From: a virus
Reading direction: 5' to 3' (one strand)
Length of the DNA: 64,000 bases
IMG/VR virus record: IMGVR_UViG_3300029349_000001
Location: 97,087-161,086 of that record
Shown here piece after piece: positions 2,862 to 64,000 of this stretch. Position numbers and translations under genes: made by a program. How positions within the stretch are numbered: the stretch's first letter is position 1; each line of letters opens with the position of its first letter. The notes below the pieces were generated by a model that ran no database searches, had not been told where the DNA came from, and was given only the letters and a program-made list of their open reading frames with translations.

Positions 2862-3258
2862 TGCTAATAAGTTCCTTCCACTCGTTTGTTGTATCAAAAG
2901 GTAGTGCTATATAAGATATTCCATTATTGACACACCAATTTTGCTTATCTTCGTCTCTTTTTTTGCTCTTAACGAAACCCATTACATTCTGATGATAAAA
3001 TTGTACAAACTTATAATGCTGTTCGCCATGAACCTCAATACATTTTTTAATCAGTGGTAGATAAAAATCTAGGTATAAAGTTTCGCTACGTCTAACAGGA
3101 ATTGGAACTTCTTCTAATACCTGTAGAGTTGGATATATTTCATGTATTAAGGATCTAGCTAGTAAATGTAAATCTGACTTATTTTGTAGTCTGCTATTAG
3201 AGATACAACCAGTAATAGACCAAGAAACTTTATTATTGTCTAGGTCTTTAATAATCAT
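2854..3258 (-). CDS. Vsr/DUF559-like endonuclease
   Basis: YLDFYLP...IEVHGEQHY...RDEDK motif. Confidence 0.75.
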   Translation of the reverse strand: MIIKDLDNNKVSWSITGCISNSRLQNKSDLHLLARSLIHEIYPTLQVLEEVPIPVRRSETLYLDFYLPLIKKCIEVHGEQHYKFVQFYHQNVMGFVKSKKRDEDKQNWCVNNGISYIALPFDTTNEWKELISNA

Positions 3259-48120: not shown

Positions 48121-48210
48121 AAAAGATGGGAGGGAATCGAACCCTCGTCACATAGCGTATGTTTAATACTAAACTAGAGGCTATGGTCTTAGTCACCAGA
48201 CTCCACTTTT
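48121..48210 (-). ncRNA. tRNA-like element (pseudo-tRNA, expanded anticodon loop)
   Basis: T arm GAGGG-TTCGATT-CCCTC, D arm GTCT/AGAC, stem CATAGC/GCTATG, imperfect acceptor stem. Confidence 0.5.
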
Positions 48211-52455: not shown

Positions 52456-52800
52456 TTAGAGTAATTTGTATTCTCTTATGTCGCCATTTTCTGCTATTTT
52501 CTTATTTTCATAGGTTGTTGCAACTCTACGATAAAACTCTTGCTTTATATTCTCTAATACACCAGTAATGACAGCAATCTTAGGATAAGAAACGTCCCCC
52601 ATAGTGCCAGATAATATGCGAGAAAAAGCATAATTAATATCTCCGCATATACTTAAAAATTCTTCGTTACTAATTTTTGTTTTATACGGATTAGCGTATG
52701 GGTTGTCAGGATTTGCAGGAATATTCTCACGCAAACACTGCATCATATGTTCTATACATATGTCTAAATTTGCTCTATTTGATTCTTTGATATAAGGCAT
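52456..52800 (-). CDS. Conserved phage hypothetical protein
   Basis: MPYIK..GDINY..GVLE..EFYRR..YENKK..NGD. Confidence 0.75.
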   Translation of the reverse strand: MPYIKESNRANLDICIEHMMQCLRENIPANPDNPYANPYKTKISNEEFLSICGDINYAFSRILSGTMGDVSYPKIAVITGVLENIKQEFYRRVATTYENKKIAENGDIREYKLL

Positions 52801-53657: not shown

Positions 53658-54012
53658 TATTAATCCTATATAAAGGCACTACACAGTTTTGATTGTCATA
53701 AGGATTATTGGTCAACCTTAAATCGTACAAATCACCTTTATCATTTGTTTTAGCAAACGCGGCGGGTTTGTCAAGAGATTTTTTAAGTTGTTCCAACTCT
53801 CTCATAGCACCCAAATACAGATCGGTTTGTTCTGTAGCCAACTTATTTGCTTCGTAAACTTCTTTGGCTAAGTCTCGTTTGGTTTGTCTAAGTTTAGCCA
53901 GTTCATCTGCTGCATTTAGTATAGTAAATTTAGTTAAAGTCCAATAGCCAGTAGCAACGGCTTTGTTACAAGACTCTATCAAGTGATCTAATGGTGCAGC
54001 ATTTTCCGTCAT
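53647..54012 (-). CDS. Hypothetical protein
   Basis: ORF. Confidence 0.6.
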   Translation of the reverse strand: MTENAAPLDHLIESCNKAVATGYWTLTKFTILNAADELAKLRQTKRDLAKEVYEANKLATEQTDLYLGAMRELEQLKKSLDKPAAFAKTNDKGDLYDLRLTNNPYDNQNCVVPLYRINNEQ

Positions 54013-54227
54013 GACGAAAAGCCTATCTTTATCTTTTCAGCAACAGTAACCTCAATTTCATCTGCCGTAAAATTCTGTGTGGCATATGAACGACCGTTCC
54101 ACCAACCACACTCATAGGTTACGTTATTACTACCACGAATATTAATACTCGCTATAGTACCATATACATCATCTGCCAACTTAACTTTGCTTCCAACCCT
54201 ATAAAGTTCTAGCGAATTTTTGCTCAT
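54009..54227 (-). CDS. Small SH3-like beta protein
   Basis: VGSKVKL..YECGWWNG. Confidence 0.55.
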   Translation of the reverse strand: MSKNSLELYRVGSKVKLADDVYGTIASINIRGSNNVTYECGWWNGRSYATQNFTADEIEVTVAEKIKIGFSS

Positions 54228-54241
54228 TATTTTTCCTTTAT

Positions 54242-54439
54242 CTATAGATCGTTTTCATCTGAACAATCATAACATCCAGTATCATATCCCTGTTCATGGC
54301 CCATAGCATATGCTGCGGTCAACCATTCAATTATATTATCGGTTTTTTCTTGTTCGACAGCAACCTTTATATCATCCAACATTCGGTCTATTCTAGGGCC
54401 GAAACCCTCATCTTGATTTAGCCATTCATCAAATGTCAT
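54242..54439 (-). CDS. Small hypothetical protein
   Basis: ORF after sigma70 promoter. Confidence 0.6.
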   Translation of the reverse strand: MTFDEWLNQDEGFGPRIDRMLDDIKVAVEQEKTDNIIEWLTAAYAMGHEQGYDTGCYDCSDENDL

Positions 54440-54473
54440 AATTTATATCCTTCAAACGCTTTGGTGTATAGGT

Positions 54474-54502
54474 ATTATACCGTTTACCCCTCTAGGAGTC
54501 AA
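54474..54502 (-). promoter_or_regulatory. Sigma70-type promoter
   Basis: TTGACT-N17-TATAAT. Confidence 0.8.
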
Positions 54503-54506
54503 GAAC

Positions 54507-54959
54507 ATGACAAAAAACTATACAATTCCTTACTTAAAAGTCATAGTAAAAAAATCTAAGTCGATCAGAGAAGTATTATTTAATCTCAATATGGCTACTG
54601 CTGGAGGCAATTACCAAACTATTAAAAAGAAAATTGCTGAATACAATATTGACACTTCTCATTTTTCTGGTCAAGCATGGAATAAAGGTAAAAAACTAGG
54701 CCCAAAAAGATCTATAGAAGATTATCTTTCTAATAAGAAACCTATACAAAGTTGGAAATTAAAAAGAAGATTATTACAAGATAAATTGTTTGAACCCAAA
54801 TGTTATGAGTGCGATAATGAATTTTGGTTAGATCAACCAATACCACTAGAGTTGCATCATATAGATGGAGATAATACTAATAATAACTTGTCAAATCTAA
54901 CTATACTTTGCCCAAATTGTCATGCCCTGACTGATAATTATCGCGGAAAAAATAAATAG
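54507..54959 (+). CDS. Free-standing HNH homing-type endonuclease
   Basis: CYEC..LELHHIDGDNTNNNLSNLTILCPNCH; antisense to surrounding genes. Confidence 0.9.
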   Translation: MTKNYTIPYLKVIVKKSKSIREVLFNLNMATAGGNYQTIKKKIAEYNIDTSHFSGQAWNKGKKLGPKRSIEDYLSNKKPIQSWKLKRRLLQDKLFEPKCYECDNEFWLDQPIPLELHHIDGDNTNNNLSNLTILCPNCHALTDNYRGKNK

Positions 54960-55225
54960 GAGCGGTGGGAGTCGAACCCACACTTGAAGGATTTTCTTAC
55001 TACTATAGTTTTCACTACCCTTTCGGTTTGTAGTCTGGACTTTATCTTAACCATAACTTTCGTCTTAGGTTCCTGCCGTCAAGTCTCTACACCTTCATAT
55101 TTCTATGCTTGGCTCGGTATTAGCAGTTAAGCCTCCACCGAATTTGACAGGTTCTACTTTAAAGATTTCTCTTTAAGCACTCAAATTGTATAAGTCCTTT
55201 GTCTCTGCCTTTGGACTACGCTCCC
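54957..55225 (-). tRNA. trnL: tRNA-Leu(UAA), intron-split
   Basis: Exons 55225-55192 and 54995-54957 splice to GGGAGCGTAGTCCAAAGGCAGAGACAAAGGA-CTTAAAA-TCCTTCAAGTGTGGGTTCGACTCCCACCGCTCCTA. Confidence 0.92.
54996..55191 (-). mobile_element. Group I intron (IC3-like, 196 nt, no ORF)
   Basis: Follows exon U and ends in G; IGS GAG; P3 CCUGUC/GGCAGG; P4 UUCGGU/ACCGAG; R GUAGAGACUUGA; S AAGAUAAAGUCC. Confidence 0.92.
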
Positions 55226-55315: not shown

Positions 55316-55597
55316 TCAGCCGTTAGTGTGAGCCTTGATTCGACGCACAATGTCGGCCATAGCCTCAACACTGTCAACCGTCTTGGTTGGCTTTGCACGT
55401 TCCATCGCAGGAAGTTCAACACCCTTAGCCTTAAGGGCTTCCTTAGTACGAGCATAACGAGCCATTGTACTAGCAACCTTCTGACCCGTCTTACTAGCAA
55501 TCTCAGCATAAGTCTTGCTAGAAAACACAGCCTCAAGGAACTGCTCATCAGAACAACGGATACGCTTCTGCTTCTCTGTAGAAATAACGTCTGCCAT
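55316..55597 (-). CDS. Small HTH-like DNA-binding protein
   Basis: TYAEIASKTGQKVAS; GGAGGTG RBS. Confidence 0.7.
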   Translation of the reverse strand: MADVISTEKQKRIRCSDEQFLEAVFSSKTYAEIASKTGQKVASTMARYARTKEALKAKGVELPAMERAKPTKTVDSVEAMADIVRRIKAHTNG

Positions 55598-60518: not shown

Positions 60519-60593
60519 GACCCGTTTCTTTAGGTTTTATAGCCAACTGGTGTATAAAAGTGTAAGGTTTTATGTTTTTACAGGATTTAAATT

Positions 60594-61172
60594 ATGAAAA
60601 AACAATGCACAAAATGTAAGAAAAAATTACCCGCAACTAAGAAATATTTTCATACCAATAAAACAGGCTTTAGAGCCAGATGTATAACTTGTCATAAAGA
60701 ACAGTGTAAACAATATTATCAAAAGAATATAGATAAGTTTCTAGCATACAAAGAAAATAATCATACTAAAATATTAAAAGCAAAAAAGAAATATAGACAA
60801 AAAAATAAAAAGAAAATTGCTGAATATAAGTATTGGTATCATAAAAATAGGTATAAAAATGATTTACAGTATAGATTATTGCATAACTGTGGAAATCATA
60901 TAAGAAAATATCTAAAACAAGATAAAAACGATAAACGGTCAACAGAATTGTTGGGATGTTCTATACTAGAATTGAAGGTATATCTAGAAAAACAATTTGA
61001 TAATAAAATGTCATGGAAAAATTATGGTACTTATTGGCATATCGACCATATCATTCCATGTTCTAGTTTTGACTTTACCGATCCCATACAACAACAACAG
61101 TGTTTTCATTATACAAATTTACAGCCACTAGAGGCAAAAGCAAATATTAAAAAAGGAAATAAAATACTTTAG
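60594..61172 (+). CDS. Free-standing HNH endonuclease
   Basis: CTKC..CITC; LGCS..MSWKNYG.WHIDHIIP..FHYTNLQPL..N..K; antisense to neighbours. Confidence 0.88.
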   Translation: MKKQCTKCKKKLPATKKYFHTNKTGFRARCITCHKEQCKQYYQKNIDKFLAYKENNHTKILKAKKKYRQKNKKKIAEYKYWYHKNRYKNDLQYRLLHNCGNHIRKYLKQDKNDKRSTELLGCSILELKVYLEKQFDNKMSWKNYGTYWHIDHIIPCSSFDFTDPIQQQQCFHYTNLQPLEAKANIKKGNKIL

Positions 61173-63634: not shown

Positions 63635-63827
63635 TAGATTATTTTTTTGTATTTTTTTTATCAGATAAAGGTATATCTGTGAACTTACTAAGTTTTTTTG
63701 TTAGTTTATTAAAATACTTATCTTCTATCAGATTTTCAATATCTTTGTCTTTTTGTTTTTTAAATTTTTTAAGTGCTTTTTTCCAGAAACTCATTCATTT
63801 TTCCTTAATATTAATGATGATTTTAAA

Positions 63828-64000
63828 GTGGAGACGAGGGGAGTCGAACCCCTGTCTTGAGATATTTCTAATTACATCTTCTACAAGTTTATTTTGTTCA
63901 TAAGTTTTAAGAAAGATTAAAGTACAAACAACATTCATCTTTCCGTACCAACTAATCTCAGGCTAGAACCCGTTGGCTATTCTAGCAGCCGAAGGATTTT
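63828..64000 (-). ncRNA. ssrA: tmRNA, 3' portion (runs off window)
   Basis: ..AAACTTGTAGAAG..CAAGACAGGGGTTCGACTCCCCTCGTCTCCAC matches the tmRNA 3' domain; no anticodon arm adjacent. Confidence 0.8.

Follow-up and report, generated by a model that had tools for sequence, protein, structure and literature searches.

We analyzed a 64,000-nucleotide (nt) stretch of viral DNA (IMG/VR virus record IMGVR_UViG_3300029349_000001, positions 97,087 to 161,086; hereafter, the window), which is low in G+C (~35%) and part of a large phage. On its minus strand lies a transfer RNA (tRNA) gene with the anticodon UAA, trnL(UAA), which is split by a group I intron that holds no open reading frame (ORF); on the plus strand, a free-standing gene for an HNH protein converges on the tRNA gene and abuts its 3' end (Table 1). 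An ORF-less intron with an adjacent free-standing endonuclease gene is the layout of collaborative homing. Compared with hundreds of related sequences from viral and metagenome contigs (loci labelled L###; the huge phage LR756511 is L003), the window is a well-preserved example of the free-standing, convergent stage of a large and apparently undescribed class, made up of trnL(UAA) group I introns in phage tRNAs and a tRNA-specialised HNH family, with intron and HNH gene forming a loosely linked mobile pair.

Table 1. Features at the split trnL(UAA) locus, in window coordinates (aa, amino acids)
Feature	Position	Strand	Basis
tRNA(UAA) gene, split	55225..54957	-	sequence; ARAGORN with introns allowed
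5' exon, tRNA nt 1-34, ends GGACTT	55192..55225	-	sequence; ARAGORN; alignment
ORF-less group I intron, 196 nt, trnL(UAA) "Leu.3Ug" type	54996..55191	-	Rfam; RNAalifold
3' exon, tRNA nt 35-73, starts AAAATCC	54957..54995	-	sequence; ARAGORN; alignment
HNH gene, 150 aa, ATG 54507 to TAG 54957-54959	54507..54959	+	ORF list
AGGAG ribosome-binding site of the HNH gene	54494..54498	+	sequence
GGTGTAT motif, 38 nt ahead of the HNH ATG	54463..54469	+	motif count
65-aa ORF between the HNH gene and the 72-aa ORF, variably present	54242..54439	-	ORF list
Conserved 93-aa gene directly upstream of the tRNA, neutral anchor	55316..55597	-	ORF list
Conserved 72-aa gene, downstream flank	54009..54227	-	ORF list
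Stretch missing where only the last ~9 HNH codons survive (L104, L169)	54456..54929		relatives compared
Larger variable stretch, HNH gene plus 65-aa ORF	54240..54953		relatives compared

At default settings ARAGORN reports no tRNA in the window; with introns allowed, it reads tRNA(taa) with a 196-nt intron at U34/A35. The 5' exon supplies the 5' acceptor strand, a 3-bp D stem with a Leu-like GGCAGA loop, the 5' strand of the anticodon stem and C32 U33 U34, and the 3' exon supplies A35 A36, the 3' strand of the anticodon stem, a 5-nt variable loop, the T arm, the 3' acceptor strand and A73, without an encoded CCA. The intron begins with ATAC and terminates with TAAG. The spliced anticodon loop is CUUAAAA, and the intron therefore lies between U34 and A35 of the UAA anticodon; in the syntenic intronless relatives L169, L129 and L230, the exons meet at precisely 55192|54995. 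Since the Rfam alignment reaches only to 55014, other 3' splice sites were considered; they were rejected because these relatives confirm the junction and only G 54996 restores a 7-nt loop. A suppressor tRNA (anticodon UUA) was ruled out by the same spliced loop. A first-pass annotation of this DNA, made from the sequence alone, had placed the intron at U^AA of the anticodon and had let the HNH stop codon overlap the last three tRNA nucleotides; both placements hold, the complement of the TAG being C71-U72-A73 of the tRNA.

The group I assignment is borne out by the covariance model as well as by the intron-mode call of ARAGORN, with an Rfam Intron_gpI (RF00028) match at 55201-55014 (-) that scores 56.0 bits against a cut-off of 50 (E = 1.6e-11). 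In an alignment of 46 non-redundant homologs from viral contigs, RNAalifold recovers the acceptor, D, anticodon and T stems of the tRNA together with P1-P9 of the intron, and compensatory double changes occur in 44 of the 64 consensus pairs, every one of which also forms in the window. A U.G pair in P1 (U at -1) is present in 46/46 aligned homologs; the P7 pseudoknot lies outside the pair scoring, and its columns are invariant. The last intron base is G in the window and in all 20 of the commonest junction types among the matches listed. Intron and tRNA look functional from their conserved folds, and splicing is predicted. Four core blocks of the window intron, CAAATTCGG, CCGAGCCAAG, AAGGTGTAGAGACT and GTCCAGAC, are presumably those of the Azoarcus and Anabaena IC3 introns. 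The window intron shares with the classical trnL(UAA) intron the insertion site (CUU/intron/AAAA), the P1 U-1.G pair and the terminal G, and differs in that it sits in a phage genome, in a tRNA without a long arm and with a partner HNH gene outside the intron. To our knowledge, cyanobacterial trnL introns are ORF-less. The junction of the Nostoc trnL(UAA) intron is CUU/a...g/AAAA (Williams 2020, bioRxiv 10.1101/2020.01.27.920355), and the first-pass claim that the window intron occupies the classical site is correct.

The same intron is widespread. A pattern spanning the 3' end of the intron and the 3' exon was searched in viral contigs and in species-representative bacterial genomes, and it found at least 119 loci in the former, at least 99 of them confirmed as intron-split trnL(UAA), and at least 120 in the latter, at least 91 of them confirmed with the same intron-exon junction. 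Bacterial carriers, among the matches listed, span Proteobacteria, Acidobacteria, Bacteroidota, Bdellovibrionota and others. The GenBank phages Atu_ph07, LR756501 and LR756511 also hold the trnL(UAA) intron, unannotated. At its cut-off, the Rfam group I intron model gives no match in L244 and L067, so censuses based on that model undercount the family. Among phages, the classical trnL(UAA) intron is common. According to a 2014 review of bacterial group I introns, every phage intron known by then lay in a protein-coding gene, although phages have many tRNA genes (PMC3984707); no later paper that deals with introns in phage tRNAs came up in the literature searched, and the survey of Williams 2020 covered bacterial and archaeal genomes only. 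The suggestion that phages may be a vehicle for tRNA introns is compatible with the shared junction in at least 91 bacterial genomes, whichever way the transfer would have run.

The HNH protein matches PHROG 10822, "HNH endonuclease" (E = 3.9e-46), and scores below the Pfam gathering cut-offs for HNH (18.0 versus 21.4 bits) and HNH_3 (18.5 versus 24.8 bits). Its motif, CxxC...HH...N...CxxCH, is intact, with C99, C102, H118, N130, C135, C138 and H139 invariant in 23 homologs, and an AlphaFold2 model (predicted local distance difference test score, 88) folds into an N-terminal helical domain and a beta-beta-alpha HNH domain. A link to a characterised homing enzyme was sought in vain, since a PDB sequence search and Foldseek yield generic, non-significant HNH matches (McrA, Gme HNH, Cap5). 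The best GenBank match, at 50% identity, is an ORF inside the same trnL(UAA) intron of LR756511.

Homologs of 42-57% identity sit within this intron in other phages and in bacteria, at positions that vary from the P6 region in L003 to near the 5' end in the L004 group. Among the matches listed, intron-bearing viral loci hold the HNH gene inside the intron in sense (12) or antisense orientation (1), convergent and abutting the 3' end (14, the window counted), or in sense orientation on the downstream (5) or upstream side (6). Metagenome contigs add many further antisense homologs within the intron, and bacterial chromosomes add intron-resident homologs in both orientations (among the matches listed). 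A profile search placed 31 of 33 full-length homologs in viral contigs inside or at most 250 nt from a tRNA gene; homologs of at least 40% identity sit at tRNA-Leu, free-standing or inside the same intron, and more distant ones at Tyr, Lys, Met, Thr, Gln or Asp tRNA genes. That the HNH gene is tied to trnL and its intron, as had been proposed for the window, is supported by homologs inside that very intron and by the association with tRNA-Leu. In the protein tree, the convergent-abutting forms make up one group (Shimodaira-Hasegawa-like approximate likelihood ratio 76, below the tool's line of 80) next to the intron-resident antisense form, and at least 8 changes of position are needed over the whole tree.

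Three further observations concern HNH genes at tRNA loci. Long trnL(UAA) introns of 600-770 nt (L097, L058, L084, L087, L032, L070, L030, L100, L037) contain ORFs that resemble the window HNH protein only in the HNH motif, and at least two HNH lineages have therefore colonised the trnL(UAA) intron. ARAGORN also places HNH homologs inside long introns of Leu(UAG), Leu(CAA) and Met(CAU) genes (L264, L270, L397, L547; L403; L427); provided that these parses hold, introns of further tRNA genes also carry the family. Finally, in the gut-metagenome phages L256-L260 and L535-L541 (around 2960-3046 or 1960-2046), a 50%-identical HNH gene stands in sense 3-4 nt upstream of an intronless trnL(UAA). The tRNA of L256 has a degraded 5' acceptor strand and scores under the Rfam tRNA cut-off; insertion of the HNH gene may have damaged it.

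Both parts come and go among relatives. All four combinations of intron and HNH gene, present or absent, occur at syntenic loci, where the HNH gene behaves as a presence/absence indel. Six relatives that keep the intron (L047, L042, L052, L056, L062, L068) lack the larger variable stretch of Table 1. In intron-bearing L104 and intronless L169, ~27 nt corresponding to the last ~9 HNH codons are left 3' of the tRNA, which shows that the HNH gene was lost there by deletion. Between the window and L047, intron and exons are 97-100% identical (the intron 98%), compared with 75-81% (about 78%) for the flanking genes; this island of identity fits a recent exchange of the tRNA-intron segment, with purifying selection contributing as well. 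A palindrome, GATAATTATC, lies in the 3' coding end of the HNH gene (window 54937-54946) and recurs ~13 nt past the tRNA in the HNH-less loci L042, L052, L056, L062 and L068, where it may be a further HNH remnant or a recognition or recombination site.

The first-pass annotation held that the HNH enzyme cuts intronless trnL alleles, that the intron protects the resident copy, and that the two should co-occur in relatives. We drew a neutral sample of relatives anchored on the upstream 93-aa gene, which gave 72 usable loci. Nine of these carry the HNH gene: eight have the intron, none has an intronless canonical arm, and one is intronless with a variant anticodon stem. The corresponding numbers for the 63 non-carriers are 20, 30 and 13. 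The intron is accordingly enriched in carriers (8/9 versus 20/63, p = 0.0017), and the uninterrupted canonical arm (GGACTT|AAAATCC) is avoided by them (0/9 versus 30/63, one-sided Fisher p = 0.005). Samples anchored on the HNH gene itself show a similar avoidance: 7 of the 8 distinct intronless alleles abutted by the HNH clade of the window have altered anticodon stems (AGGCA, CAAAA, CAGCA, AAGGT, AAAGT, ACAAG, ATCGA), against a base rate of ~30% (p about 0.001-0.003). An absolute link between HNH gene and intron, suggested by a count of 0/111 intronless trnL(UAA) loci with an HNH homolog, was ruled out as an artefact, because the pattern used for that search required a canonical anticodon arm; when loci are sampled through the HNH protein, HNH genes do turn up beside intronless tRNAs. 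The results favor a nuclease target in the anticodon arm that would be disrupted either by the intron or by changes in the stem.

The best-supported mechanism, to which we assign a probability of roughly 55%, is collaborative homing by a two-part selfish cassette on a working phage tRNA gene. The tRNA(UAA) would read UUA and UUG, the commonest leucine codons of the phage; its transcript would carry the 196-nt intron, which would remove itself to leave a 73-nt tRNA without a long variable arm; and the product of the HNH gene would be a homing-type endonuclease, its family being one that recognises the DNA of tRNA genes. During co-infection, this enzyme would nick or cut the trnL gene of a relative wherever the GGACTT|AAAATCC arm is uninterrupted, and repair by recombination from the donor would copy the intron (at most 40 bp from the HNH gene), the HNH gene, or both. 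The resident copy would escape because the intron splits the site, and intronless carriers would escape through substitutions in the anticodon stem.

Several observations weigh against this reading. When identical tRNAs are collapsed, the avoidance of the uninterrupted arm becomes 0/5 versus 14/35 (p = 0.10) and the intron-HNH association has p = 0.12, and the original counts are not independent because the loci are related; the co-occurrence seen in the neutral sample therefore does not persist at that level of significance. Variant anticodon stems also occur without an HNH gene, in 13 of 43 intronless non-carriers. In L519, an intact HNH gene (60% identical) abuts an intact intronless tRNA with a canonical arm, and in L261 and L262, which belong to a more distant subclade, a 50%-identical HNH gene stands in sense upstream of an intact canonical intronless trnL. 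Some HNH intron endonucleases, I-HmuI for example, nick intron-plus and intron-minus DNA alike. Lastly, the tRNA is type I, and its leucine identity, taken up below, is putative. The proposed protection by the intron has indirect support, in that HNH carriers hardly ever have an uninterrupted canonical arm; the intron is not required, and L519 is an intact exception.

Some of these points speak for the main rival, an intron-independent homing endonuclease, which we regard as distinctly less probable. The HNH protein would here recognise either the 3' portion of trnL or the adjoining downstream junction and would spread as ordinary free-standing endonucleases do, with self-immunity conferred by its own insertion or by tolerated nicking; the intron would be an unrelated resident, sometimes co-carried at a distance of 40-235 bp. 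Such an enzyme would account for the four intron/HNH states among syntenic relatives, for L519, L261 and L262, for the many intronless tRNA genes that adjoin distant family members and for the lack of significance after de-duplication. It would also account for L241, L473 and L474, in which HNH proteins 85-87% identical to that of the window, encoded in the same layout, abut intronless tRNAs with altered stems, so that the intron is not required. The rival is harder to reconcile with the residence of the family inside the intron, because the target of an intron-resident HNH enzyme must be an intronless gene near the insertion site. Nor does it predict that carriers avoid the uninterrupted arm and that intronless carriers are enriched for altered stems.

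An improbable account, though one compatible with homing, is a helper resembling SegB of phages T4 and T6: breaks in or near tRNA genes would favor the inheritance or amplification of a phage tRNA cassette, of benefit, for example, against host nucleases that target tRNA. SegB cuts inside tRNA genes, driving preferential inheritance of the tRNA region and amplification of those genes under Septu defence (PMC13096335), and the unusual tRNA without a variable arm, seen in viral sets only (the bacterial set being the matches listed), would suit such a role; the window, on the other hand, shows no tandem amplification, and the frequent loss of the HNH gene with remnants is what one expects of a selfish element. 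That the locus consists of inert relics, with a non-splicing intron, a tRNA pseudogene or an inactive HNH protein brought together by historical accident, is very improbable: the G1.U72 pair and the missing variable arm of the tRNA would fit, whereas 64/64 consensus pairs form and the stems co-vary across relatives, the intron is far closer to that of L047 than the flanking genes are, the HNH catalytic and zinc residues are intact, and the Rfam tRNA model gives 58.8 bits to a short, intronless relative of the tRNA. A further idea of the first-pass annotation, that splitting the anticodon protects the precursor against anticodon nucleases, finds no support in this analysis.

Beyond collaborative homing as such, we put forward more tentatively that, within one phage clade, a selfish nuclease has shaped the sequence of the tRNA, with carriers shielding the arm by a self-splicing intron or by compensatory substitutions that rewrite the stem, and that the family has moved repeatedly between free-standing and intron sites.

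The identity of the tRNA deserves separate comment. At 73 nt with a 5-nt variable loop, the spliced tRNA is type I and lacks the long arm of a type II tRNA-Leu; in the alignment, a clean gap stands opposite the long variable arm of LR756501, Atu_ph07 and LR756511. The label tRNA-Leu given at first is supported by the UAA anticodon, A73 and the Leu-like D arm, and not by the variable arm. For a type I tRNA, leucine identity is plausible, since in Streptomyces a naturally occurring type I tRNA-Leu is a substrate of leucyl-tRNA synthetase (PMC6614811). In 21 long ORFs, UUA is the commonest leucine codon (34%), and UUA and UUG together make up 48% of leucine codons. Short-arm tRNA(UAA) genes occur in viral contigs at no fewer than 18 intron-bearing loci besides the window and at 16 of 111 intronless loci, and in 0/91 confirmed intron-bearing bacterial genomes (among the matches listed). 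Those of L008, L017, L047, L051, L054, L074, L078 and others are 73-77 nt long, with A73, a Leu-like D arm and covarying stems. They may represent a type I tRNA-Leu peculiar to phages. Because Septu cuts tRNA-Tyr in its variable loop (PMC13096335), a tRNA that has lost the variable arm might, speculatively, evade defences of that kind more easily.

Other features of the window bear on expression and context. The GGTGTAT motif that the first-pass annotation assigned to the HNH gene is indeed present; the window has 16 copies versus 7.1 ± 2.7 expected, and their strand follows that of the genes. The only two plus-strand copies each precede a plus-strand ORF, at 54463 (the HNH gene) and at 60549 (an ORF at 60594), and the minus-strand sites include 52557 (-) and 43203 (-); the motif is a candidate phage-specific promoter element. 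A predicted, near-consensus sigma-70-like promoter (TTGACT, 17 nt, TATAAT) at 54474-54502 (-), inside the variable segment, diverges from the HNH gene and is aimed at the 65-aa ORF, for which there was no Pfam or PHROG match.

Elsewhere, the window encodes rIIA, rIIB, a clamp-loader-like ATPase, an ATP-dependent ligase and endonuclease VII, and a megablast search with 20 kb of it against phage records gave no match. Both here (52456-52800, -) and in the 595-kb phage LR756511 (L003, 4486-4770, -), a DUF6899 gene is found several genes upstream of trnL, a hint that local gene order is conserved between the window and huge phages. The 3' part of a transfer-messenger RNA (tmRNA) gene at 63826-64000 (-) ends at the window edge (Rfam 58.8 bits against a cut-off of 47) and is either phage-encoded or an attachment-site fragment. 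Huge phages are known to encode tmRNAs (PMC7162821). The fragment led us to consider a prophage, yet the window is filled with phage genes. Past rIIB, at 48121-48210, ARAGORN and Rfam at default thresholds report no tRNA-like sequence.

Established collaborative homing pairs are the psbA intron of cyanophage S-PM2 with F-CphI and a T7-like DNA-polymerase intron with a neighbouring HNH gene (originally Zeng 2009 and Bonocora & Shub 2009, as summarised in PMC3984707 and PMC6083498). The indirect evidence at our locus would fit a nuclease target that coincides with the insertion site of the intron; the host genes of those pairs are protein-coding, whereas ours is a tRNA gene. Unlike in those pairs as summarised, members of the HNH family of the window also reside within the same intron, where position and orientation vary, as well as beside intronless alleles, and changes in the anticodon stem offer a second possible route to immunity. 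I-SspI is encoded in the group I intron of Synechocystis tRNA-fMet (Bonocora & Shub 2001, in PMC3984707); from that account, it differs in being intron-encoded, in nuclease family, in its tRNA and in being bacterial rather than phage-borne. SegB of T4/T6 (PMC13096335; Brok-Volchanskaya 2008) is likewise a free-standing nuclease among or beside phage tRNA genes, but it belongs to the GIY-YIG family, involves no intron and prefers no single tRNA isotype. The window HNH protein has no PDB sequence or fold match beyond the generic HNH core to nucleases of the I-HmuI type, although both are small HNH proteins with an added domain linked to a phage group I intron. I-HmuI-type nickases of Bacillus phages combine a small HNH domain with a DNA-binding domain and are tied to a phage group I intron. 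The HNH nickases F-TflI, F-TflII and F-TflIV of phage T5 are free-standing endonucleases in phage tRNA clusters, with no intron involved.

In this locus and its relatives, the trnL(UAA) intron is partnered with one HNH family in all layouts (free-standing upstream, downstream and convergent, and intron-internal in either orientation), and all intermediate states survive within one syntenic clade; because every layout and intermediate survives, the proposed route from a free-standing endonuclease to a mobile intron can be tested with natural alleles. Canonical, intron-split and stem-variant tRNA genes are defined substrates for studying the co-evolution of a homing nuclease with its target. Distinct from this is the question raised by the tRNA(UAA) that lacks a variable arm and is seen in phages only, which concerns tRNA identity and perhaps also evasion of defences that cleave tRNA. 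If a selfish nuclease has indeed shaped the tRNA as tentatively suggested above, the locus would hold a record of all the stages through which a mobile intron arises, in a gene common to phages and many bacterial phyla, and phages would be plausible carriers of the classical trnL intron.

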